A stretch of 61,909 nt of DNA from a virus. Both the position numbers and the translations under genes were made by a program. Below, piece after piece: positions 3,803-61,909 of the stretch (the stretch's first letter is position 1; the number at the start of each line of letters is the position of its first letter). The notes under the pieces were generated by a model, which made no database searches, was not told the origin of the DNA, and saw nothing but the letters and a program-made list of their open reading frames with translations. The stretch is taken from IMG/VR virus record IMGVR_UViG_3300049811_000099, positions 1 to 61,909 of that record, one strand, 5' to 3'.

Positions 3803-4506
3803 CAGAGTTCCTCGTCGTCGTCAGTGGGGGTGGAGAAGGGGAGTTCCGGCTGGGCCGGATCGCTGGTTGCCGGCTCGGTGGTCTTCGTCTCGGCGGCCGG
3901 TTCGCCTTGCTTGCTGTCGTATGAGATGGAGAGGAAGTAGTTCTCCATGCCGGTCGTCGTACCGTGAACACTGGTCATCTGCATCAGGATGTCGTCGGCC
4001 CGCTTGATCGACGCCGCGAGTTCCCGGTACTTGGCGCGGATCTCGGGACGGTCCTCCATCAGCGTGTACATCCAAGCGGACAAGGTGTCGCCTGGAATCC
4101 TCGCGCCGATGCAGTCGTTCGGGGCGCGGTTGTAGATCGCCTCGACTGCGCCGTACTCGAAGAAGTCCACGAGGACTTCCCGCATGCCCAGGCCGACGCT
4201 CACGTCGAGACCTTCCTCAATAGGCGCGCCGCCGGCCTGCGCGATCAGCAGCATCGGCTTGGGCATCTTGCCCAGCTTGCGGCGGCTGAAGGCATCGCAG
4301 TAGGTCTCGTACTGCTGCACCACGCTTTGCAGCGTGTCGGCCTCGATCTCCTGATTGACCGTCAGCAGCGTGCAGACGTGATCGGGCAGCGCGACATGGA
4401 ACTTGCCAGTTGATGAGTCGAGGATGATCTCGACCTCCTGCGTTTCGGTCATGCCGTCCGCGAGCACGGACATGACTTCGCGGTTGAAGGTGACAACGCG
4501 ATTCAC
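3802..4506 (-). CDS. Hypothetical early protein (234 aa), acidic C-terminus DDDEEL
   Basis: GTG start overlaps the upstream stop (CTGTGA). High GC3. No recognisable motif. Confidence 0.65.
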   Translation of the reverse strand: MNRVVTFNREVMSVLADGMTETQEVEIILDSSTGKFHVALPDHVCTLLTVNQEIEADTLQSVVQQYETYCDAFSRRKLGKMPKPMLLIAQAGGAPIEEGLDVSVGLGMREVLVDFFEYGAVEAIYNRAPNDCIGARIPGDTLSAWMYTLMEDRPEIRAKYRELAASIKRADDILMQMTSVHGTTTGMENYFLSISYDSKQGEPAAETKTTEPATSDPAQPELPFSTPTDDDEEL

Positions 4507-6275: not shown

Positions 6276-6889
6276 AGATCGTCCTCGTCGTGTGCTGGGG
6301 CCGGTTGCGGCACGGCCGCTGGTGCCGGCTTGACCTTCAGCAGCCCGAGCGCGCTGCGGATCTTGACCCAGCAGCGGTGGATCACGTGGGCTTGGAAGAT
6401 GGCGTCGTCCAGCGCGTTGTGGGCAACGCCGACTGACGGGATGCTCTTCTTGTCCACAGCCGCGACATCGACGATGGTCCGCATATCGCGCACGTCCCAG
6501 TAAGCCCACGGTTCCTGCTGCCCGACAGCACCGTGATCGTAGGCGTACTCCAGTATCGTGATGTCGAAGCTCGATCCGTTGCCCCAGACGGTCGCACCCT
6601 TGTGCTCTGCGACGTAGAGCCCGAGGTCGTACAGCGCGACCGACAGCGGCACCTTCTTGCCATGGTCCGAGAAGACCCGCTTGGCCTTGTCGTTCTGCCC
6701 GACCCACCAAGCCAGCGTGTCCGGGCTGATGCTGCCTGCTTTCATGGCAGTGGCCAAGTTGATCTCCCGGTAGAAGGTCTTGCCGAGCTTGCCGGTGTCG
6801 AGGTCGATGGCTGCAGCGCCGATGCTCAGGATGGCGGCGTCGTAGCGAGACTTGAGTGTCTCAAGGTCGATAGAGATGGCAGTGGGCAT
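6272..6889 (-). CDS. DEDDh 3'-5' exonuclease (DnaQ-like / Rv2179c-like fold)
   Basis: Exo motifs IDLET, GNGSSFDITIL and HNALDDA occur in the right order and spacing. Confidence 0.8.
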   Translation of the reverse strand: MPTAISIDLETLKSRYDAAILSIGAAAIDLDTGKLGKTFYREINLATAMKAGSISPDTLAWWVGQNDKAKRVFSDHGKKVPLSVALYDLGLYVAEHKGATVWGNGSSFDITILEYAYDHGAVGQQEPWAYWDVRDMRTIVDVAAVDKKSIPSVGVAHNALDDAIFQAHVIHRCWVKIRSALGLLKVKPAPAAVPQPAPAHDEDDL

Positions 6890-24920: not shown

Positions 24921-25210
24921 AGAAGCCGTTCTACGAGAAGACTGAGAAAGAAAGCAATCTTCAGTCCGAGATCATCGAGCACGCGCATCGGCGCGGCTGG
25001 TTCGCGCAAAAGGTCGTGTTTGACGGTCGCCGCGGTTGCCCCGACGTGGTGGCCATTCGCAGAGGTCGGACTGTCTGGATTGAGGTCAAGCGGGAAGGTG
25101 ACGATCTGCGACGTCAACAGGCCCTCGTCGCGCGTGAGATGCGCGAGCACGGTGCAGAGGTCTTCGGCCCAGTGGACAACATTCGTGATGCGATGGAGAT
25201 TCTGAAGTGA
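24917..25210 (+). CDS. VRR-NUC domain nuclease
   Basis: GTG overlaps the polymerase stop (CTGTGA). PDVVAI...VWIEVKREGDDLRRQQ matches the D..ExK VRR-NUC core. Confidence 0.75.
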   Translation: MKKPFYEKTEKESNLQSEIIEHAHRRGWFAQKVVFDGRRGCPDVVAIRRGRTVWIEVKREGDDLRRQQALVAREMREHGAEVFGPVDNIRDAMEILK

Positions 25211-26286
25211 GCAATCTAAGAATCCTGCAAGGCGACTGCCTTGACGAGATGGAATGGATGGCCGATGAGACCGTCCAGTGCTGTGTCACCTCCCCGCCCT
25301 ACTTCGGTCTGCGCGACTACGGGCACGAGGGCCAGATCGGCTTGGAGAAAACGCTGGAAGAGTACGTGCGGAAGATGGTTGAGGTCTTCCGCGAAGTGCG
25401 TCGGATTCTCAAGCCGGATGGAACGCTTTGGTTGAACCTGGGTGACAGCTACGCGGCGAACAAGCGATCAGGCAGCACTAGCGCCGGATTCAATGCTCGC
25501 TATCACGGACAGTCTGAGAAGACCGATAGCAAGCAAGTCTTAGTTCACAAGGACATGAGCAGAGTGTCGATGCAGACCGGACTGCATCAGAAGCAACTTC
25601 TAGGAATGCCCTGGCGAGTCGCTTTTGCCTTGCAGGCCGATGGTTGGTACTTGCGCCAAGACATCATCTGGTGCAAGTCCAATCCAATGCCTGAAAGTGT
25701 CACGGATCGCTGCACCAAATCTCATGAGTACATCTTTCTCATGAGCAAGAGCCCGAAGTATTACTTCGACCATGAGGCGATCAAAGAGCCCGCCGCACCG
25801 AGTTCCTTAGCTCGTTGGGCACAAGACATTGAAGGACAGGCAGGAAGCAATCGAGTTCCGGGCAAAACCAACGGCAACATGAAAGCTGTCGGCGGACCTC
25901 GAAGCAAAAGAGACAGTTTCAAGCGCACGAACAGCAAGCGCGCTCAAGCCATTCCCGGGCAACGTGTTGGCACGCACAGAGAAGACCGCGAAGAAAGTAC
26001 CTACGACACGGCCATGCGCAATCGGCGCAGCGTATGGGATGTGGCAACGCGCCCGTACAAAGAAGCGCACTTCGCAACCTATCCCCCAAAGTTGATTGAA
26101 CCCTGCATCCTCGCGGGTAGCCGCCCGGGTGATGTTGTATTCGATCCGTTCGGCGGCAGCGGCACGACTGCGGCTGTCGCCTTGCTGCACGGCAGGCGTG
26201 CCATCACCTGCGAGTTGAATCCTGAATACATCAAACTCATCAAGCAGCGCACGAGCGCCGCAATGATTGAGTACGAAGAACTATGA
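25207..26286 (+). CDS. DNA methyltransferase (beta-class N6-adenine or N4-cytosine)
   Basis: Motif IV SPPYFGLRDY lies near the N-terminus and AdoMet motif I FDPFGGSGTTAAVA near the C-terminus. Confidence 0.85.
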   Translation: MSNLRILQGDCLDEMEWMADETVQCCVTSPPYFGLRDYGHEGQIGLEKTLEEYVRKMVEVFREVRRILKPDGTLWLNLGDSYAANKRSGSTSAGFNARYHGQSEKTDSKQVLVHKDMSRVSMQTGLHQKQLLGMPWRVAFALQADGWYLRQDIIWCKSNPMPESVTDRCTKSHEYIFLMSKSPKYYFDHEAIKEPAAPSSLARWAQDIEGQAGSNRVPGKTNGNMKAVGGPRSKRDSFKRTNSKRAQAIPGQRVGTHREDREESTYDTAMRNRRSVWDVATRPYKEAHFATYPPKLIEPCILAGSRPGDVVFDPFGGSGTTAAVALLHGRRAITCELNPEYIKLIKQRTSAAMIEYEEL

Positions 26287-29983: not shown

Positions 29984-30364
29984 GTCAATCTCCGAATGAC
30001 GACTGAATGCCAAATTAGCACGTGGCGTAGAAGTGGTGTAGTGCGATTCGTGAGGCTCAGAAATACATCGACATTTCAATCACTTGCGAATGTCGGTGCG
30101 TGACGTAAAGTGGTGTAGCAGCGGAAGTCGATGGTGAATGAAATCAGACACTTACAGCGTCAGAAGTCACTTTGCAGTGGCATGACCGAATCGTTGTGAC
30201 GCGAATATGAGACACCGTTTGCTGAATGAAATCAGTCACTTACTGAAGTCATTCGCCTAAGTGGTGTAGTTTTGGTGTAGTGCGAAGAGCACTTCAGACC
30301 ACGAAAGTTCAAGCATCCACCACTTGTGTAATCTTGCCCAATCGCTAGGCAAGAGGACTAAGGG

Positions 30365-30997
30365 ATGGTTCGCAAGAAGAAGCCCGACCCGCTGTCGGAG
30401 ACCTTCGTCGAGAAGATGCAACTCGTTTACGACGAGTCAGATCGCGGAGCAGTGGTCGTAGGGGCCTGCCTCGTTGAAGAACACCTCGACTCGATCCTCT
30501 GGACGACCTTCGGCCACCAAGGCATTCCCAAGAAGGTGATCGAGTCAATGTTCGATCTTGCCGGGCCGCTTGGCACGTTTGCGGCCAAGGCAAAGACGGC
30601 CTACGCCTTCGGGTTGATCTCGAAGGAAACCTACGAGGACATCGAGCGGATTCGAGCCTTGCGCAACGATGCGGCGCACACAGGGACAGGCTTCACGCTG
30701 TCAGGCGCCAAGCGGAAGGCGAAGATCATGGCCTTGCGCCATGCAGTCCAGTACGACGACGAAAGTGAGAGCGACGCAGCGATGGTCGCTCACGAGAAGT
30801 ACGTGTGGGGTCTCTGCGTCGGCGCTACCTGCATCGACATCTTCAGAGACTTCGACAAGTACAACAGCAAGCAGTTGAAGATCGCAAAGGTCGAGTACCA
30901 AGAACTCTTGATGCGATCCCCGGCCTTCAAGCACGGACTGCTGTCGGGGATGCTGAAGACGCCGGCCGGGAGGTTGAAGGGGCTGTTGGACCCCTAG
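30365..30997 (+). CDS. MtlR-like (mannitol-repressor fold) protein, accessory cargo
   Basis: GPLGTFAAKAKTAYAFGLISKETYEDIERIRALRNDAAH parallels E. coli MtlR GPLGDLSVRLKLIYGLGVINRQEYEDAELLMALREELNH as I remember it. Confidence 0.55.
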   Translation: MVRKKKPDPLSETFVEKMQLVYDESDRGAVVVGACLVEEHLDSILWTTFGHQGIPKKVIESMFDLAGPLGTFAAKAKTAYAFGLISKETYEDIERIRALRNDAAHTGTGFTLSGAKRKAKIMALRHAVQYDDESESDAAMVAHEKYVWGLCVGATCIDIFRDFDKYNSKQLKIAKVEYQELLMRSPAFKHGLLSGMLKTPAGRLKGLLDP

Positions 30998-31587
30998 AGT
31001 TCGCAGTAGTGTTCGTGAAGCCTTCGGTCAAGGTACTTCACGAACTTGAGTTTCCCGAAGTGGCCTTCAAGGGTGTAGCCGAGAGCCAGCATTTGCGCCT
31101 TCGTCCGCGTCTTTGTTGCCAGCGTAGCTACCTGCCTGCCCGTGGTTGGGTCGATCCATCTCGGGGTGACGCTCGACTTACCCATGTATGTCCATCCGGC
31201 CGCGCGATAGACATGCCCGGTGTGCCCTTGCGATTGATCTGCGTAGGTCACTAGTGAGTTGAAACGTCCGTCCTTGCGGATCAAGTCTGTACTGCGCGCC
31301 AACAGGAATGAGCAAGCGTTCTTCGGTACGCCTGGAACTACGACCATGCGGGACAGCGAAAGAACTCGCTTCCATTCGAGTCTGTTGACCGACATGCACG
31401 CGGGCTTCGTTGGTGGCAACCACCACGCAACACCGTAGAGACCACCGAGGTCGTCATACAGCCCGTGCGTGAACACACGGGTATGGCTCGCTCCGCGAGC
31501 GTAGTGGTACTTCTCGACGAGTTCCTTTGCCTGTGCGATTGGAACATCCTCGACGAACCACTCCGACTTCCTAAACTTTGGCGACAT
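30994..31587 (-). CDS. GNAT-fold, Mom-like DNA modification acyltransferase (tentative)
   Basis: The pattern KYHY..G...LYGVAWW.PP...LSLSRMVV.P..PKNACSFLL...LVTYADQSQGHTGHVYRAAGWTY resembles the family NCBI names Mom adenine methylcarbamoylation protein. The start is ambiguous (31587, 31626 or 31665). Confidence 0.45.
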   Translation of the reverse strand: MSPKFRKSEWFVEDVPIAQAKELVEKYHYARGASHTRVFTHGLYDDLGGLYGVAWWLPPTKPACMSVNRLEWKRVLSLSRMVVVPGVPKNACSFLLARSTDLIRKDGRFNSLVTYADQSQGHTGHVYRAAGWTYMGKSSVTPRWIDPTTGRQVATLATKTRTKAQMLALGYTLEGHFGKLKFVKYLDRRLHEHYCEL

Positions 31588-31780
31588 TGACTCCGTCGCT
31601 TTCTGCGCCTGCTGCCGCCCCATCATCAAGCTGTGGAAGTTCGCTGAAGGGTTCATCGGGCGCATCGCTTAGGACTGCCAGTGGCACCCTAAGCGTCCAA
31701 GGATCGACGCCGTTTGACTGGGCAGCGGCCACCGCGATCCGAAGTGCCTTCAGCAGCCGCCTCTTGTCGTAGTTGGTCAC
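31571..31780 (-). CDS. Hypothetical protein (69 aa) between the RHH regulator and the Mom-like gene
   Basis: The GTG lies immediately after the RHH stop (AAGGAGTGAGTG). Its 3' end overlaps the Mom-like start region, reminiscent of com-mom. Confidence 0.45.
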   Translation of the reverse strand: MTNYDKRRLLKALRIAVAAAQSNGVDPWTLRVPLAVLSDAPDEPFSELPQLDDGAAAGAESDGVNVAKV

Positions 31781-31987
31781 TCACTCCTTCTCTTTCTGCG
31801 GCCACCTTGGGCGCCGCTTACCTGTGAACCTCGGCTTGTTCGCAAGCTCGCGTCGAAGCCACTCGTCGCCACCCCGTTCCTCGTAGGCCGTCTTCTCGGC
31901 CTTCGTCGCCCGCATGCGGATCACCTCGCTACGCACCTCTTTAGGTGGCAGCGGTGGTCGTCCGCCCTTGGGCTTAGGAGTGGTCAT
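31781..31987 (-). CDS. Small RHH/MobC-like DNA-binding regulator, copy 1 (68 aa)
   Basis: GGRPPL...VIRMRATKAEKTAYEERGG..WLRREL matches the ribbon-helix-helix pattern. It differs from copy 2 at 2 residues. Confidence 0.6.
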   Translation of the reverse strand: MTTPKPKGGRPPLPPKEVRSEVIRMRATKAEKTAYEERGGDEWLRRELANKPRFTGKRRPRWPQKEKE

Positions 31988-31993
31988 GGCCCG

Positions 31994-32021
31994 ACTGTAG
32001 CAGGTTTTTGTGCTACGTAAA
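31994..32021 (-). promoter_or_regulatory. Promoter TTTACG-16-TACAGT ending 6 nt before the RHH ATG (leaderless-type)
   Basis: Minus strand: -35 at 32016-32021 and -10 at 31994-31999. ATG at 31987. No SD is possible. Confidence 0.55.
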
Positions 32022-32424
32022 GTGCCCCTCGGTGGTGGAAGGGCGTCCAAGATGTGATGAACCAGTTCACCGTGGTGTAGTTCTGGTGTAGACCGCTCTT
32101 CGAGCGTCTAAAGGGTCGTTTGGAATCAACGACTTAGCTGTGGCGGAACGTGTGGCAACGTGACGAAGAATGTTGCGATTTTCTGAGGGAAATCGCCTAT
32201 AGATCAATGCACTAGGGCGCTTATCCACAGGAGTACGAGGTTTTGACCGAGTTGTTGTGTCGTGCAAATGAGACGCTTTATTCGCTTTGAAATCATCTAC
32301 TTAGCGTTTCGGCGGGCTTCGCTGGTGTAGTTTTGGTGTAGCTCGACAATCACTTTCGGCCACGGAAGTTCACGAATCAACAGGATGGGGAATCCTGCTC
32401 AATCGGTAGGCGGGACTACGAGGA

Positions 32425-33243
32425 TCAGAGTTCGTCGGCGTCGGCCACGCGCGAGCAAGCAACCTCGAAGTAGTTCGGTTCACGCTCAATGCCAATGAAG
32501 CGCCGGCCGGTGTTGATGCAGGCCACGCCTGTCGTACCGCTTCCCATCGTGTTGTCAAGCACGACCTGACCGCGCTCGGTGTACGTGCGAATCAGGTACT
32601 CCATGAGAGCGACGGGCTTCGCAGTCTGGTGCCAGTTCTTGTTCTCGGTCGAGAACTCAAGAATCGAATGTGGGTAGCCGGTCTTGTCTTGAACGTAGTC
32701 GCCATGCGACTTGCGCTCTGAGAAGAACGTGTCGAGTGGATTTACTCGCCGGCTCTTCTTCATCAGTTTCGGCGCCATCTCTTGCACGCCCTGCGGGAAG
32801 TAGGGCATCCGCTTGTCCGACTGCGTGGCGTGAACTGTCGTACCTTCGCTGAAGACCAGCACGTTTTCGTGCTTCTTCATGGGCTTGTTCTTGGCGTGCG
32901 CGAAGTTGGTCGGACGGTTCTTCATCCAGATCCATTCGTACTTTAGCCATTCGAGATTACTGGCCGCAAGCGTCGTGGTGAATGGCTGACTCGCGGTTAG
33001 CACGATGGCTCGATAGGGCTTGAGCACGCGCTTGTACTCGCTCCACAAAGCCTTCAGATCAATCAGGCTGTCCCAAGCACACGCCGTCGTCCCGTAGGGG
33101 AGGTCACACAGCACCATGTCCACGGACCCCGTGGGCAAGTGCTTCATCGCCTCAAGGCATTCAGCCTGGATGAGCGTCGCCCATCCGATTTGTTGAGCCC
33201 GGAACTTGTTGTCGAGGCCAGAGAACCGTTCGTAGAGCTTCAC
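32425..33243 (-). CDS. DNA methyltransferase (beta-class, DPPY-type), second copy in the genome
   Basis: Motif IV CDLPYG near the N-terminus and motif I LDNTMGSGTTGVAC near the C-terminus. GTG start directly after the RHH copy 2 stop. Confidence 0.85.
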   Translation of the reverse strand: MKLYERFSGLDNKFRAQQIGWATLIQAECLEAMKHLPTGSVDMVLCDLPYGTTACAWDSLIDLKALWSEYKRVLKPYRAIVLTASQPFTTTLAASNLEWLKYEWIWMKNRPTNFAHAKNKPMKKHENVLVFSEGTTVHATQSDKRMPYFPQGVQEMAPKLMKKSRRVNPLDTFFSERKSHGDYVQDKTGYPHSILEFSTENKNWHQTAKPVALMEYLIRTYTERGQVVLDNTMGSGTTGVACINTGRRFIGIEREPNYFEVACSRVADADEL

Positions 33244-33450
33244 TCACTCCTTCTCTTTCTGCGGCCACCTTGGGCGCCGCTTACCTGTGAACCTCGGCTT
33301 GTTCGCAAGCTCGCGTCGAAGCCACTCGTCGCCACCCCTCTCGTCGTAGGCCGTCTTCTCGGCCTTCGTTGCCCGCATGCGGATCACCTCGCTGCGCACC
33401 TCTTCAGGTGGCAGCGGTGGTCGTCCGCCTTTGGGCTTAGGAGTGGTCAT
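33244..33450 (-). CDS. Small RHH/MobC-like DNA-binding regulator, copy 2 (68 aa)
   Basis: Near-identical to 31781..31987 at DNA and protein level (K16E and E36D only). Confidence 0.6.
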   Translation of the reverse strand: MTTPKPKGGRPPLPPEEVRSEVIRMRATKAEKTAYDERGGDEWLRRELANKPRFTGKRRPRWPQKEKE

Positions 33451-33456
33451 GCGCCG

Positions 33457-33484
33457 ACTGTAGCAGGTTTGTGTGCTACGTAAA
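33457..33484 (-). promoter_or_regulatory. Promoter TTTACG-16-TACAGT (leaderless-type), duplicate of 31994..32021
   Basis: Minus strand: -35 at 33479-33484 and -10 at 33457-33462. ATG at 33450. Confidence 0.55.
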
Positions 33485-33490
33485 GTGCCG

Positions 33491-33503
33491 CCCCCCCCCC
33501 CCC
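33491..33503. repeat. Homopolymer C13 (G13 on the coding strand of the RHH gene) 6 nt upstream of the -35
   Basis: Counted directly. The paralogous position in copy 1 reads cccctc instead. Confidence 0.9.
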
Positions 33504-33849
33504 GGTGGTGGATAGCGGCACAAGATGTGATGAACCAGTTCACCGTGGTGTAGTTGGTGTGTAGTCCGCTTTTCGAGCATCTAAGGGGTCGTTTGGAATC
33601 AAGGACTTAGCGATGCCGGAAGGTGTTGCATCGTGACGAAGAATGTTCGCGTTAGAACGAGAAAAGACGTTCTGAATCAAAGGTCTACGGTGGTTATCCA
33701 CAGAACTACTATGTTCTGACCGATGAATCTACGCCCCAGGATTCCACAAGAGATTCAGATACTTACCCAAGGGTGGCGTAGAAGTGGTGTAGTTCAATTC
33801 ACACGATCAGCACTAATGGGTCGCGTGGTATATTCATTGCATACATGCG

Positions 33850-34065
33850 ATGAACAAGGCACTTCTGCACTTCGAGCAAGCCATCGGGCTTGGTCCGACG
33901 AAGGCTGCGCTCCTACTGGGCATAGCCTACGTGACCTATGCACAGGTGCGCTCGGGCTCGCGACCATTGCAGAAGTACCACGCGAGGCACATGGAAGCTC
34001 TTCTGCTTCTTCCTCCTTCGACTCTTCGCAGATTGATCAAGGGGCACGTGAATGGCGACCAATGA
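33850..34065 (+). CDS. Small HTH protein (71 aa) at the head of the late operon
   Basis: LGPTKAALLLGIAYVTYAQVRSG is a Cro-like HTH. Overlaps the TerS start by 14 nt. Confidence 0.5.
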   Translation: MNKALLHFEQAIGLGPTKAALLLGIAYVTYAQVRSGSRPLQKYHARHMEALLLLPPSTLRRLIKGHVNGDQ

Positions 34066-34645
34066 GCGGGTCAAAAAGGGCGGCAGCGCCTACGCCGACG
34101 AAGAGACCAAGGCCGGTATCTATGAAGGTCTGAACACGACTCAGTTTCAGCAACTCTTCAAGCGCGATTTCAGGGCTGTCCAGAAAGCCTTCTACGAAGC
34201 TGGCGTCGATGGCATCAAGCCGGTTGGCAAACGGTACGGCGCGGACATTTACGCTGTACACGACATTGCGCCGTACTTGGTCAAGCCAAAGATCGACGTG
34301 GAGGCGTACATCCGGAAGATGGATCACAAGGATCTTCCGAAGATGCTCACGAAGGAGTTCTGGGCGGGTCAGCGGTCGAAGCAGGACTACGAAGAGAAGG
34401 CCGGGCTGCTATGGCGCACCGAGCGCGTCGTGCAGGAGATGGGCGAGGTCTTCAAGCTCGTCAAGATGTCCGTGCTGCTGATGTCCGACGCCGTGGAGCG
34501 GCAGACTGAACTCACCGACAAGCAGCGGGACATCATCAAGTCGCTGACCCACGGAATGCTCGACGATCTGGTCAAGCGGATCGAGGACAAGTTCAAGGTG
34601 CCAACGAATGAACGTCAAGAAGCCATCCAAGACGAAGACCTATGA
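34052..34645 (+). CDS. terS: Terminase small subunit (DUF1441-like)
   Basis: Position directly upstream of and overlapping TerL. YAVHDIAPYLVKP and the helical C-terminus recall the DUF1441 small terminases. Confidence 0.6.
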   Translation: MATNERVKKGGSAYADEETKAGIYEGLNTTQFQQLFKRDFRAVQKAFYEAGVDGIKPVGKRYGADIYAVHDIAPYLVKPKIDVEAYIRKMDHKDLPKMLTKEFWAGQRSKQDYEEKAGLLWRTERVVQEMGEVFKLVKMSVLLMSDAVERQTELTDKQRDIIKSLTHGMLDDLVKRIEDKFKVPTNERQEAIQDEDL

Positions 34646-37094
34646 CTCCATCGGGGAGATCATTCTTGACCTGACGGCAATGCTCCGTCCACCGGAGCGC
34701 CTGTCCGTCGCCACTGCAGCCGAGAAGTACCGCTACATCAACCAGCCTGGGGCCTACGTCGGCCAGTGGAAGAACGCAACGGCTCCCTACATGGTCGAGC
34801 CAATGAACACGTTCACTTCTCGACAGTACAACGGGATGATCTTCGTTGGGCCTGCTCAGAGCGGGAAGGCGCTGTGCTTGAAGACTCCGATTGCCACGCT
34901 TAATGGTTGGAAGACCATGGGTACGATTGAGATCGGTGATGCCCTTTACGATGAAGCGGGCAAGCCGTGCGAGGTCTTCTGCGTCTCGCCGGTTATGCAC
35001 GACCATGAGTGCTTCCAGGTCTGCTTCGCAGGCTGTGCTCCCATCGTGGCTGACGCCGACCACCTTTGGCTTGTCCTTCGCAGCGGGGCTAGTGAGACTG
35101 TCACCACTCGACATTTGAACCCTAACACTGACGTTGTTCTTCGACACGACCGAGCATTCAAACTGAACAAGGTGATTCCGCACGAATCGGTTCCTGTGCG
35201 CTGCATCGGCGTCACTTCACCAAGCAGGCTATTTCAGGCCGGTCTTGATCGGATTCCAACCCACAACACCGACGCTCTCGTCATCAACACCCTGGCGTAC
35301 TCGATCAAGGTGGACCCGATGGACATGATGGTGGTCTGCCCCACCATGCTCGACGCCCGGGACTTCGGCATTCGCCGCGTGGACCGTCTGCACCGTCACA
35401 GTGAGCAGATTGGCGAGATGCTGCTGCCATCGGCCGACGCGGACAACCGCTACGACAAACAGTACACGACCGGGATGCTCTTTACGCTGTCGTGGCCCAC
35501 TCCGAGCCAACTGGCCGGCAAGCCCATCGGTCGGATCGTGCTCACCGACCGTGATCGGATGGTGGATGACGTTGAAGGTGACGGCGAGCCCTTCGACCTT
35601 GCCTCGAAGCGCACGACCACGTTCGGCTCCTACGCAATGACCGTGGCCGAGTCGTCACCATCGCGTGAAGTCTCGAACCCGAAGTGGATTCCGCAAAGTC
35701 CACATGAAGCCCCGCCCTGCGAGGGCATCCTGAAACTCTACAACCGCGGAGATCGCCGCCGCTGGTACTGGCCTTGCCCGCACTGCGGCGAATACTTCGA
35801 GGGCATGTTCAAGCATTTGATCTGGGATGCAGAACTGCCCGGCACAAACTTAGAGAAGGCAGCAACCGTCAAGATGGCATGCCCGCACAACGGCTGCATC
35901 ATCATGTCCGACGACCGAGACGAGATGAACTTTTGGGGTCAGTGGGTCAAGGACGGGCAGGGTGTTGACAACACCGGCCGAGTCTTCGGGCCTGAACCTC
36001 GAACAAGCATTGCCTCTTTCTGGCTGCGCGGCGTGGCAGCCGCGTTCACGTCTTGGCGCAAGCTGGTTGAGATGTATCTCAACGCCAATGACGAGTACGC
36101 TCGCACTGGCTCAGAGGAAGCCCTCAAGAAGTTCTACAACAACGACCTTGGCGAGCCCTACACACCACGCTCGCAAGGCGACACCCGTTTGCCCGAAGTG
36201 CTCAAGGCGCGTGCTGAGAAGTTGGCACCGCGACACGTCCCCAAGGGCGTGCGCTTTCTCGTGGCCGCAGTGGACGTGCAGAAGAATATGTTCGTCGTCC
36301 AGGTCTACGGGATCTTGCCCGGCCTCAAGTTCGACATGGTTCTCGTGGATCGCTTCGACATTCGCAAGAGCAAGCGAACTGATCACGACGATGAACGCCT
36401 TTGGGTGAAGCCCTCGGCCTATGTCGAAGACTGGGATGAGATCACCGAGCACGTCATCGACAAGGAGTACCCGCTTGACGACGGCAGCGGTCGCATGATG
36501 GGAATCAAGATTGTCGGCTGTGATTCCGGTGGTCGAGCAGGCGTTACGTCCATGGCGTACAGCTACTACCGACGCCTAGTTGAGCAAAACAAGCATCGAC
36601 GCTTCATTCTGCTCAAGGGTGATCCTTCACCCAATCAGCCGCGCACGCGAATCAGCTACCCGGACTCGCAAAAGAAGGACATGAAGGCCGGTGCGCGTGG
36701 TGACATTCCGATTCTTCTGCTGCAGTCAAACCTGCTCAAAGACGACCTGGACGGCCGCCTAGACTGTATGGAGCCGGGCAAGGGGATGATGCGCTTCCCG
36801 GATTGGTTGAGCGACTCGTTCTTCTCCGAGATGTGCGTCGAGGTGCGTACCGAGAAGGGATGGGAGAACCTGTCAGGTCAGCGCAACGAGGCATGGGACT
36901 TGAGCTACTACTCAATCGGGTTGTGCGTGTCGGAACTGATTCGAGCGGAGAAGATCAGGTGGGATGATCCGCCTGGATGGGCTGCCGAGTGGGATAAGAA
37001 CGATCTGGTGCGCAAGCCGGAAGAGAAACCACGTTTCGCCAACCCGCTACAATCCGCATACGATTTCAGCAGTTTCGCCAAGGCTCTTGCTTGA
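34608..37094 (+). CDS. terL: Terminase large subunit, lambda GpA type, interrupted by a mini-intein in the Walker A loop
   Basis: GPAQSGK[intein]TDALVINTLAYSIKVDPMDMMVVCPT matches the GpA-family N-terminal ATPase motif. 828 aa including the 133-aa insertion. Confidence 0.9.
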   Translation: MNVKKPSKTKTYDSIGEIILDLTAMLRPPERLSVATAAEKYRYINQPGAYVGQWKNATAPYMVEPMNTFTSRQYNGMIFVGPAQSGKALCLKTPIATLNGWKTMGTIEIGDALYDEAGKPCEVFCVSPVMHDHECFQVCFAGCAPIVADADHLWLVLRSGASETVTTRHLNPNTDVVLRHDRAFKLNKVIPHESVPVRCIGVTSPSRLFQAGLDRIPTHNTDALVINTLAYSIKVDPMDMMVVCPTMLDARDFGIRRVDRLHRHSEQIGEMLLPSADADNRYDKQYTTGMLFTLSWPTPSQLAGKPIGRIVLTDRDRMVDDVEGDGEPFDLASKRTTTFGSYAMTVAESSPSREVSNPKWIPQSPHEAPPCEGILKLYNRGDRRRWYWPCPHCGEYFEGMFKHLIWDAELPGTNLEKAATVKMACPHNGCIIMSDDRDEMNFWGQWVKDGQGVDNTGRVFGPEPRTSIASFWLRGVAAAFTSWRKLVEMYLNANDEYARTGSEEALKKFYNNDLGEPYTPRSQGDTRLPEVLKARAEKLAPRHVPKGVRFLVAAVDVQKNMFVVQVYGILPGLKFDMVLVDRFDIRKSKRTDHDDERLWVKPSAYVEDWDEITEHVIDKEYPLDDGSGRMMGIKIVGCDSGGRAGVTSMAYSYYRRLVEQNKHRRFILLKGDPSPNQPRTRISYPDSQKKDMKAGARGDIPILLLQSNLLKDDLDGRLDCMEPGKGMMRFPDWLSDSFFSEMCVEVRTEKGWENLSGQRNEAWDLSYYSIGLCVSELIRAEKIRWDDPPGWAAEWDKNDLVRKPEEKPRFANPLQSAYDFSSFAKALA
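34869..35267 (+). mobile_element. Mini-intein (133 aa, no homing endonuclease) with class-3 WCT signature, inside terL
   Basis: Block A (A)LCLKTPIATLNGWKTMGTIEIGD, block B DADHLW, block F VPVRCIGV, block G IPTHN followed by +1 Thr. Excision restores GPAQSGKT. GC3 is visibly lower than in the exteins. Confidence 0.8.
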
Positions 37095-61770: not shown

Positions 61771-61909
61771 GCGTCTACCGCAACAACGTCAGCATGACGG
61801 TATCGGGCACGCCCGGCACCGGCACGATCACGCTCAATGCGGCGTCCACGGGCGCGCAGTCGTTCGCGTCAGCCTACGGCGCCAACGCCACGGTCGATGT
61901 ATTTATTAC
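61767..61909 (+). CDS. Tail fibre protein, 5' part of the junction-spanning gene (continues at position 62 of the window through the overlap)
   Basis: GTG overlaps the upstream stop (GTGA). The frame is continuous with 1..971. Confidence 0.7.
   Translation, partial: MSVYRNNVSMTVSGTPGTGTITLNAASTGAQSFASAYGANATVDVFI
61849..61909. repeat. Terminal overlap, copy 2: identical to 1..61
   Basis: Exact 61-nt match by direct comparison. Confidence 0.95.

Follow-up and report, generated by a model that had tools for sequence, protein, structure and literature searches.

Tandem modules of a candidate ribbon-helix-helix gene and DNA-modification genes beside the integrase gene of a temperate phage

Why would a phage carry the same small gene twice, with the same leader, each copy running into a different set of genes? 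The question is raised by IMG/VR virus record IMGVR_UViG_3300049811_000099, whose 61,909 nucleotides we analysed whole and call the window, and more precisely by the region that lies between its tyrosine integrase gene, int, and its packaging operon. An original prediction, made from the letters of the sequence alone, saw there an array of cassettes in which a portable regulator is reused to drive DNA-modification genes. The explanation that we find best, and to which we give slightly better than even credence, has the following ingredients: a repeated element, called R here, that resembles a phage attachment site (attP); a leaderless promoter in front of a candidate ribbon-helix-helix (RHH) gene; modification genes, the cargo, that are coupled to the RHH gene; and arrays of such modules that would have grown by recombination.

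Self-alignment confirms the predicted direct repeat of 470-480 bp with its 68-amino-acid (aa) gene: a module of about 480 bp is present twice in direct orientation, at 31767-32250 and 33230-33723. Identity between the copies is 95% in the first part (31767-32026 against 33230-33489), 86% in the second (32025-32174 against 33498-33647) and 77% in the last (32203-32250 against 33676-33723). Since the copies have diverged, at 95% in the gene and about 79-86% in the leader, with indels, they are not an assembly duplicate. Both hold a minus-strand open reading frame (ORF) of 68 aa, RHH1 and RHH2 in Table 1, and the two frames differ at seven codons, of which two are non-synonymous (K16E and E36D); the other five being synonymous, both genes are under purifying selection. 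The leader upstream is about 79% identical between copies, with indels of 5, 10 and 5 nt, and is thus non-coding; a leader-encoded peptide was considered and rejected, for the same indels and because its ORFs lack conservation. As had been predicted, the two copies share the junction CAGAAAGAGAAGGAGTGA and then differ; the GTG start of a different cargo gene follows the junction at once in each. Copy 1 leads into a 69-aa ORF and a homologue of the Mom protein of phage Mu, with a convergent MtlR-like gene beyond; copy 2 leads into an N6/N4 DNA methyltransferase.

Is this succession of one constant gene and variable neighbours peculiar to the window? The comparison set consists of 13 related metagenomic contigs with an RHH gene, in a clade of about 15 contigs and no isolate. 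Wherever the context is visible, the RHH gene occupies the same genomic position, divergent from the same packaging operon, and at least eight different genes directly abut its stop codon: the cargo-swapping hotspot of the original prediction is borne out. The identifiable cargo belongs entirely to DNA modification, with eight N6/N4 methyltransferases of at least four lineages, two PAPS-reductase/DndC-like proteins and one Mom, which answers the doubt, raised with that prediction, that RHH homologues might never be linked to modification genes. The methyltransferases have 272, 264, 235, 395, 259 and 286 aa and are 23-55% identical between lineages. The 272-aa lineage follows RHH in the window, L004, L012 and L013, and partly in L010; a 395-aa enzyme does so in L009; and in L001, one of 259 aa comes after a 3' stub of RHH and another, of 286 aa, after a 70-aa ORF that itself follows RHH. 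A PAPS-reductase-like gene that matches the PADLOC profiles SspD, BrxP and DndC follows RHH in L003 and L005, a 69/75-aa family in the window (where Mom comes next), L001 and L012, a 101-aa ORF in L002, and a protein of more than 212 aa in L007.

The same contigs record how arrays change. An array of its own, likewise of two modules, separates int from the packaging operon in the sister phage L001, a 60-kb contig that comes from another sample. In L001 and L012, a truncated RHH 3' stub is fused directly before a methyltransferase gene, and the stubs keep exactly the part that supplies the cargo ribosome-binding site; the deletion in L001 joined the first 16 codons of a gene of the 122-aa family to the GGDEW codons of RHH. 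Two-module arrays together with stubs and deletion derivatives indicate that arrays both grow and decay. Beyond the clade, a 61%-identical RHH homologue in L016, whose phage context is unrelated, heads an operon containing an N6/N4 methyltransferase. Deletions of another kind are seen in L012 (12026-12540) and L010 (1976-2621): they extend from the end of the cargo methyltransferase into int, removing the int-proximal element R1 and the 5' half of int, of which L012 retains only the C-terminal ~85 codons. Their carriers are probably obligately lytic derivatives of a temperate lineage.

In the window, searches with hidden Markov models uphold the predicted Mom-like and MtlR-like proteins, the second through PF05068. 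The Mom homologue matches Pfam PF25680 with 96.4 bits against a cut-off of 27.1 (E 2e-27) and the Mom-like family phrog_1384 (3e-27), and in a pairwise alignment at 22% identity it keeps six of seven Mu Mom residues (H58, Y59, R111, S124, D149 and Y159). The 272-aa methyltransferase matches PF01555 (103 bits, 3e-29) and phrog_67 (2e-71); its motif IV reads DLPY, and not DPPY as first described. It is 98% identical to the methyltransferase that follows the truncated stub in L012, and its nearest annotated relative is Bcep781 gp10, whose context is one of structural genes without RHH. The 69-aa ORF resembles the 75-aa protein of L001 (BLASTP, 57% over 35 aa, 6e-11) and has no Pfam, PHROG or PADLOC match; a role like that of Com, the activator of mom in Mu, was rejected for it, since it has no Cys and its family also precedes cargo other than Mom. 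The MtlR-like gene looks like a moron, with a promoter-like segment of its own in the distal flank of R1. Convergent genes stand at the far ends of cassettes in two phages, this one in the window and a DUF6680 gene in L002 (1829-2446), each with an outward promoter in an R flank; PADLOC gave no matches for either gene or for the small ORFs. Both are placed like morons at prophage ends, and superinfection-exclusion or defence roles are possible.

What kind of protein heads the modules? A profile search of 1.8 billion representatives gathers 87 small proteins that share the pattern GRPxLPP..R...IRxRxT.AE...Y...GG..WLR. Among 52 remote homologues, five match the NikA-like RHH family of Pfam (PF21983, best E 1e-6) and one matches DUF6290; NikA is an RHH relaxosome protein. 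The 68-aa protein has an invariant VRSEVIRMRAT, then TKAEKTAYEERGG, then DEWLRRELA, a pattern that fits an alternation of strand, helix, GG turn and helix, and from which we infer an RHH fold. The close family is rare, with seven clusters at 90% identity and five metagenome loci, its members being 76-97% identical; a search of IMG/VR with the single protein or the alignment found nothing, and representative genomes returned only a spurious match in Methanosarcina.

The two ends of the RHH gene have conserved features too. In 12 aligned upstream regions, the ATG is preceded at 6-7 nt by a TACAGT or TACAAT box, without a Shine-Dalgarno sequence, and a TTnnnG box, the putative -35, stands 16 nt upstream of it. 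This position of the -10 box predicts a leaderless mRNA: the promoter geometry of the original prediction fits and is kept in 12 elements, the leaderless start itself being read from that geometry. An inverted repeat, ACTTTnyGTrCyACrnAAA, covers the -35 and spacer in all aligned elements, and a related box, TTTCTGTGCTAC, is found beside distant RHH homologues that have no R elements (L016, also L017); the repeat is our best candidate for an RHH operator. At the other end, the last RHH codons carry the Shine-Dalgarno sequence GAAGGAG of the following gene, and the cargo start codon abuts or overlaps the RHH stop at every locus, with junction and Shine-Dalgarno conserved. By analogy with other operon-head regulators, one may conjecture that RHH regulates the cargo.

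The repeats do not stop at the module. An alignment of 14 upstream regions establishes that three regions of the window, R1, R2 and R3, are paralogues of one architecture, about 400 bp each (380-440 bp). Read in the sense of RHH and int, the order is: distal pair, site for integration host factor (IHF), TCGGTCA, DnaA box, one or two IHF-like sites, proximal pair and gene-specific promoter. A pair is the motif CTACRCC-N4-CTACRCC, and each element has two. On the other strand, GGYGTAG-N4-GGTGTAG occurs six times in the window (once with 1 mismatch), always on the plus strand and always within 30024-33792, and never in 100 shuffles; the GGTGTAG pairs first reported, with their 11-bp period, are thus real. 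Strict matches to the IHF consensus WATCARNNNNTTR, counted over the whole window, number six, of which four lie within the R elements, or 2% of the window, all four in one orientation (p ~2e-6). TCGGTCA is invariant in 12 of the 14 elements, between two clusters of arm and IHF sites.

Several observations of the original prediction take a new sense in this alignment. The repeated unit is larger than it was described, as the two module leaders have a third paralogue in 29984-30364, before int. The likeness of the spacers holds (76% between 30262-30350 and 32323-32411), as does AATCGSTAGGC near the MtlR-like start, found at 30340 and 32401, but the spacers are parts of three paralogous attP-like elements; the GAAATCA..ACTTA motifs are present and can be reread as matches to the IHF consensus; and the identical 20-mer that brackets the array, which starts at 30022 and not 30021, corresponds to the R1 proximal pair and the R3 distal pair.

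The distal flanks of the R elements carry an outward promoter-like segment, directed to the packaging operon in R3 and to the MtlR-like gene in R1, while R2 has a decayed copy. R2 is a composite of the other two: its distal flank is R1-like (31/43, against 16/33 for R3), and its proximal arm is R3-like (24/32, 43/50 and 46/53, against 9/31, 27/50 and 9/14 for R1). The switch falls within a few bases of TCGGTCA, and it is clearly resolved in the window only. The proximal arm of R2 in L001 matches that of R3 in L006, including a poly-C tract, and most R left arms are too similar to place the left boundary.

Other features of the R elements deserve mention. A perfect DnaA box, TTATCCACA, is conserved in the R2/R3-type elements of most relatives, and absent or degenerate in the int-proximal R1 type. 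Inverted repeats of 18 bp, ACTTCAGACCACGAAAGT in R1 and ACTTTCGGCCACGGAAGT in R2, stand just outside the distal pair, and also in the R2 of L001; their outer arms (ACTTTC...GAAAGT) resemble the inverted repeat over the RHH promoter, and they may be a second operator for the same protein, over the outward promoter of the MtlR-like gene. G/C homopolymers occur in R elements of three independent assemblies: C13 in the window, C20 in R2 of L001 (8180-8199) and C12 in R3 of L006 (768-779). The C13 tract, G13 in the sense of RHH, lies between the upstream palindrome and the -35 of the operon of RHH2 and the methyltransferase, where copy 1 has CCCCTC; the tract of L006 is positioned differently. Slippage in such contingency tracts could phase-vary the expression of the cargo, or the tracts could be noise from sequencing or assembly. 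The R elements were also considered as cos/cosB sites, and rejected: the Burkholderia phage AH2, the Achromobacter phage AXY1 and 14 IMG/VR relatives have the first packaging genes (g71, TerS and TerL in Table 1) without R. Three cos sites would, moreover, truncate packaging.

Which protein, then, reads the heptamers? R1 is the best attP candidate, because it is the only sizeable non-coding DNA adjoining int, and its sequence fits the anatomy of attP: it adjoins int and has pairs in both arms (30024 and 30263) with IHF sites between (30141 and 30229). R1 is likely attP, and R2 and R3 its paralogues. As to the pairs, the original prediction hesitated between arm-type sites of the integrase and RHH operators, and the layout of L020 better supports the former. 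This contig lacks RHH, and its integrase, of the same family, is 36% identical. TGATAC pairs lie at 3815/3826 and 3980/3993, with an inverted copy at 3954, and in all the 290 bp of non-coding DNA before its int hold five of the eight TGATAC copies of 9 kb. In L017, whose RHH is more distant, the heptamer is another one, CTGTGGC, with the same 11-bp period; L016 has no heptamer; and both contigs keep a nearly identical RHH beta-strand (RTEVIRMRAT against RSEVIRMRAT). From these patterns, the heptamer seems to travel with the integrase family and not with RHH. The integrase itself has an N-terminal segment, VVKRGDRYRGLVRLKGF..SKSFDT..EA..W, common to its orthologues in L001, L009 and L013. Packaging proteins are excluded as readers, because relatives with the same g71-TerS-TerL have no R. 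We thus lean, with a little more than even confidence, towards CTACRCC pairs that are arm-type sites of the integrase.

These elements suggest the following mechanism. A module would consist of an R element of about 400 bp, a sigma-70-type promoter that starts the transcript at the RHH AUG, and abutting cargo genes. RHH would be an autorepressor, acting on the inverted repeat over its own -35 and spacer, and cargo translation would be coupled to RHH translation, so that autorepression would allow a limited pulse of potentially toxic modification enzymes. There are precedents for such restraint: mom of phage Mu is heavily silenced (PMC3378877), and on plasmid p576 the RHH repressor Reg576 makes the expression of anti-restriction genes transient, by way of dual heptamer operators (PMC6294495). 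Arrays would gain modules when co-infecting relatives recombine through their repeated R and RHH sequences, and lose them by deletions that leave RHH 3' stubs, the stub being left behind because it carries the cargo ribosome-binding site.

A number of observations weigh against this picture. The window protein has no match in Pfam (E<=1), PHROG or the PDB, sequence and profile searches of the PDB being empty or non-significant, and its alignment to Arc with hhalign is not significant. The AlphaFold2 (AF2) monomer has a mean confidence (pLDDT) of 66 and is all-helical (helices 29-37 and 40-50), the strand region being modelled as helix; a poor monomer model is expected, however, as RHH proteins are obligate dimers. 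A consensus promoter scanner called no sigma-70 site at RHH, and the promoter is a match found by hand. On the side of the integrase, no integrated prophage relative, and hence no junction to place attP, was found in representative genomes; there is no discriminating covariation of the heptamer within the clade, where int, xis, repressor and RHH are all orthologous; and L020 and L017 provide one data point each, and a distant one. DNA modification is usually a late activity, directed at progeny DNA, and the logic of an early pulse is borrowed from plasmid and restriction-modification (R-M) systems. The Mom homologue has Ser at the position of R151, which is essential in Mu Mom, the R151A mutant being inactive (PMC13219725), so its chemistry should not be assumed.

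It is also conceivable, though we consider it unlikely, that the CTACRCC pairs are operators of RHH, with two dimers per dual heptamer, and that the R elements are bidirectional regulatory regions, not att-type sites, through which the RHH operons, int, the MtlR-like gene and the packaging operon would be co-regulated. Pairs do stand upstream of every island promoter, the outward-facing ones included, and heptamer-like boxes, CTACGGA and CTACAGT, lie within RHH promoters. L017 has its dual heptamer immediately next to the -35 of the RHH promoter, and over the spacer a third box in the same phase; Reg576, for its part, recognizes dual heptamers in direct repeat at four promoters that lie within 7.9 kb (PMC6294495). 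In the clade of the window, however, the pairs do not overlie the promoter but stand at about -87 to -104 relative to the RHH start; L017 and L016 keep almost the same strand, yet the first has a different heptamer and the second none; and L020 has its pairs before a related int without any RHH. The opposite extreme would give the integrase a larger role: R1, R2 and R3 would all be live substrates, and units made of R, RHH and cargo would be captured or shed site-specifically at TCGGTCA. We find this doubtful. It would explain why every module is flanked by direct-orientation R elements, even in the single-module contigs L013 and L009, why int lies at array ends, why the core is so constant between its clusters and why the R2 of the window changes type next to it. 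Yet this switch point is resolved in one genome alone, partly because the left arm of its R3 is atypical; the RHH 3' stubs of L001 and L012 are joined by microhomology, away from the core; R1 of L001 has a late-promoter-like flank; and the deletions of L010 and L012 reach into int. With scars at positions other than the core, homologous and illegitimate recombination also operate. All close RHH modules come from a single phage lineage, with no sign of mobility to other contexts, and neither an excised circle nor an empty R site was seen.

Simpler histories can be proposed. In ordinary mosaicism, RHH would be either a general phage regulator or the constant gene at the start of a moron region, its duplication a one-off unequal crossover, and its link to the cargo a matter of shared ancestry. 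The close homologues do form one narrow lineage, the recurrence of the 272-aa methyltransferase after RHH in the window and four other contigs could be inheritance, and some cargo has no identifiable family; but shared ancestry hardly leads to expect at least eight non-homologous genes abutting the RHH stop with Shine-Dalgarno and junction kept, independently composed two-module arrays in two phages, the operon of L016 in its unrelated context, or stubs retained exactly where they supply the cargo ribosome-binding site, and we therefore regard this history as rather improbable. The R elements might alternatively be iteron-type replication origins or partition sites. Plasmid origins have direct-repeat iterons at helical phasing with IHF sites nearby, the heptamers follow the same disposition, and perfect DnaA boxes are conserved in most R2/R3-type elements. 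The box is nevertheless missing from R1 of the window and degenerate in other R1-type elements, clusters have only two heptamers, relatives with the same replication genes have no R, and no Rep-type initiator is adjacent, the primase-helicase being ~12 kb away; such a role is very unlikely. Least credible of all is the idea that two strain variants living side by side were joined in assembly, as a chimera or mis-join, a concern voiced in the original prediction, and which the metagenomic source and the C13 homopolymer inside copy 2 might encourage. The copies differ by 5-21% plus indels, the junction at R2 forms a coherent R element, of which L001 and L009 have homologues, and independent samples contain the same architecture (L001) and a deletion derivative (L012).

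Table 1. Coordinates of the genes and sequence elements of the locus in the window
Feature	Position	Strand	Remarks
Excisionase-like gene, 85 aa	28613..28870	+	PHROGs excisionase families, E 1e-4 to 3e-3 (weak)
Tyrosine integrase (int), 346 aa	28943..29983	-	PF00589 9e-20; GTG start, GGAG Shine-Dalgarno
R1	29984..30364	-	upstream of int; aligns with R2, R3 and 11 elements of other contigs
R1 proximal pair	30024-30041		
R1 single heptamer	30112-30118		
R1 IHF-consensus sites	30141-30154 and 30229-30242		
R1 core TGACCGA	30183-30189		= TCGGTCA
R1 distal pair	30263-30280		
R1 palindrome	30291-30308		
R1 outward -10-like TAATCT	30329-30334		facing MtlR-like gene
MtlR-like gene, 210 aa	30365..30997	+	convergent with Mom operon; PF05068 6e-10; phrog_22031 (function not assigned)
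Mom homologue	30994..31587	-	module 1 cargo; probable ATG at 31587 with GGAG Shine-Dalgarno; ORF could reach 31665
69-aa ORF	31571..31780	-	between RHH1 and Mom; overlaps Mom ORF
RHH1, 68-aa NikA-like ribbon-helix-helix candidate	31781..31987	-	stop abuts GTG of next gene
R2, internal	31988..32424	-	
R2 -10 TACAGT	31994-31999		
R2 -35 TTTACG	32016-32021		
R2 palindrome	32058-32070		GTGAACTGGTTCA
R2 proximal pair	32074-32091		
R2 IHF site	32123-32136		
R2 DnaA box	32221-32229		TTATCCACA
R2 core	32244-32250		
R2 IHF-like site	32290-32303		
R2 distal pair	32324-32341		
R2 distal palindrome	32352-32369		
N6/N4 DNA methyltransferase, 272 aa	32425..33243	-	module 2 cargo; motif IV DLPY; motif I NTMGSGTTG
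RHH2, second 68-aa copy	33244..33450	-	97% aa identity to RHH1
R3	33451..33849	-	between RHH2 and divergent packaging operon
R3 -10	33457-33462		
R3 -35	33479-33484		
R3 C13 homopolymer	33491-33503		
R3 palindrome	33531-33543		
R3 degenerate proximal pair	33547-33564		
R3 IHF sites	33596-33609 and 33674-33687		
R3 DnaA box	33694-33702		
R3 core	33717-33723		
R3 IHF-like site	33752-33765		
R3 distal pair	33775-33792		
R3 TATATT and conserved palindromic element	33826-33846		
g71, 71-aa helix-turn-helix-like gene	33850-34065	+	first gene of packaging operon; island boundary
Small terminase (TerS)	34052-34645	+	phrog_141 terminase small subunit, 1e-40
Large terminase (TerL), GpA-type	34608-37094	+	packaging operon

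We now turn to the genome that carries the array. An exact direct overlap of 61 bp between its ends (1-61 and 61849-61909) indicates that the contig is a closed, complete, circularly assembled genome of ~61.85 kb. It is that of a temperate phage distantly related to the chi-like Casjensviridae: its structural genes share ~71-75% nucleotide identity, over stretches of a few kb, with those of the Achromobacter phages AXY1 and phiAxp-2 and of AH2. The members of its clade carry an insertion of about 5 kb, made of xis, int and the accessory island, where the replication operon gives way to the packaging operon. Homologues of g71 and TerS in AH2, AXY1 and 14 IMG/VR contigs directly follow helicase/repressor genes, the gene order of these island-less relatives being only helicase-(repressor)-g71-TerS; since they have neither int nor RHH nor R element, the whole block from xis and int through R1 to R3 is a clade-specific insertion. 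Scans of the region for tRNA genes and Rfam families gave no matches, and thus no tRNA-type clue to the bacterial site attB and no known RNA element.

Three observations concern the neighbours of the block. The palindromic element directly 5' of the first packaging gene is present in all relatives, even those without a promoter region there: it reads TATATTCATTGCATACAT in the window, ATATATTCAATGAATATAT in L025 (~6745-6765) and CGACCTATTCAATGGATAGGTCG in L021-L023, just 5' of the g71 homologue. It is a candidate for a cos site or a late operator; were it cos, the array of cassettes would occupy the end of the virion DNA that is packaged last, hence the first injected. TerL has 828 aa in the window and 697 aa in L001. 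The extra ~131 aa (34875-35267) sit inside the Walker-A region, GPAQSGKAL|C...THN|TDALV, and break the GpA_ATPase Pfam match into two stretches; the insert starts with Cys and ends with His-Asn, followed by Thr, which are hallmarks of a mini-intein. Finally, a third DNA methyltransferase of 359 aa (25207-26286, plus strand, SPPY motif, PF01555 3e-53) belongs to the replication operon, where the SNF2 helicase comes right after it. In its N- and C-terminal parts, it is ~80% identical to the methyltransferase of the second RHH cassette of L001, the central region being different, and the equivalent early-operon position of L001 holds a 92-aa gene. It follows that methyltransferase genes have moved between early operon and cassette.

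If the modules are indeed dedicated expression cassettes, RHH becomes a guilt-by-association marker for anti-restriction and DNA-modification genes, and the 69/75-aa, 101/122-aa and 78-aa families and the protein of more than 212 aa become candidates for new functions. The modules would also illustrate how a toxic enzyme can be expressed safely, through an autoregulated leaderless regulator whose 3' end contains the cargo ribosome-binding site. The attP-like repeats raise the idea of a temperate phage whose own integrase and att site accumulate accessory cassettes; were the integrase truly to exchange the cassettes, this would be a phage-borne, attP-based array for DNA-modification or counter-defence genes, each with an RHH-controlled leaderless promoter. 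The rarity of the clade limits the immediate impact of these ideas.

How does the array compare with known systems? Close in logic is Reg576 of the p576/pLS20 plasmid family (Val-Calvo et al. 2018, PMC6294495): a small gene, of RHH type there and a candidate for that type here, at the head of an operon, anti-restriction genes and recurring dual heptamers are shared, autoregulation being shown there and conjectured here, and so, by analogy, would be the transient burst of expression after DNA entry. Reg576, however, belongs to a Firmicutes plasmid, not a phage; its heptamers are spaced by 2 bp against 4 bp here, and stand immediately upstream of the -35, whereas here they are mostly 50-100 bp away and abut the -35 only in L017; its cargo, of ArdC type, does not modify DNA; and there are neither repeated modules nor a link to an integrase. 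No sequence similarity was detected. The C proteins of R-M systems, such as C.PvuII and C.AhdI, are autoregulators of the Xre type, with a helix-turn-helix, encoded upstream of R-M genes; they control the endonuclease, and leaderless C transcripts are known. A small gene for a DNA-binding-type protein, directly upstream of the genes with which it is co-transcribed, would be a timing device in both cases, but here the protein is RHH-like and the modification enzymes are orphans. Membership is rejected, with no helix-turn-helix family match and no endonuclease gene in or beside either module: of the original comparison with R-M controllers, the link between module and cargo stands, and the analogy is one of function only.

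In phage Mu, Com is a Cys-rich zinc-finger translational activator, and the mom promoter needs the C protein and Dam (PMC3378877, PMC7261163, PMC13219725). Both phages have a gene of the Mom family preceded or overlapped by a small ORF, and a toxic function under multilayer control at a genome end; here, however, the small ORF lacks Cys and also accompanies other cargo, RHH heads the operon and R151 is not conserved. Anti-CRISPR operons likewise join a conserved small putative autorepressor, usable as a guilt-by-association marker, to variable counter-defence cargo. Their Aca autorepressors are encoded downstream of the cargo and mostly of the helix-turn-helix type, and the cargo here modifies phage DNA instead of inhibiting CRISPR-Cas. 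Type II toxin-antitoxin systems were considered and rejected, because the same RHH, C-terminal tail included (76-97% identical), precedes at least eight unrelated genes.

On the side of recombination, attP sites of the lambda, P2 and HP1 types are ~250-300 bp long and lie beside int, with arm-type direct repeats on both sides, IHF sites and a short core. R1 is alike in layout, as far as its sequence tells, but here there are three paralogues in direct orientation, two of which are far from int and double as promoter regions. Integrons, and the accretion of integrative and conjugative elements with cis-mobilizable elements (ICE-CIME), build tandem cassettes bounded by recombination-site repeats beside a tyrosine recombinase gene, a disposition that is found again here. 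The array is not an integron, however: its repeats of 380-440 bp have no attC-type hairpin structure, the integrase matches the generic PF00589 only, each module has its own promoter and regulator, and several scars are homologous or illegitimate. A search of the literature found no description of this module architecture. Both of the kinds that it resembles in function are already known, namely anti-restriction operons under autoregulation and hotspots of accessory genes beside attP; what appears to be new is a head gene, portable and leaderless, that belongs to a rare NikA-like RHH family and serves DNA-modification cargo, the tandem arrangement of such modules, and the attP-like elements that flank every one of them.

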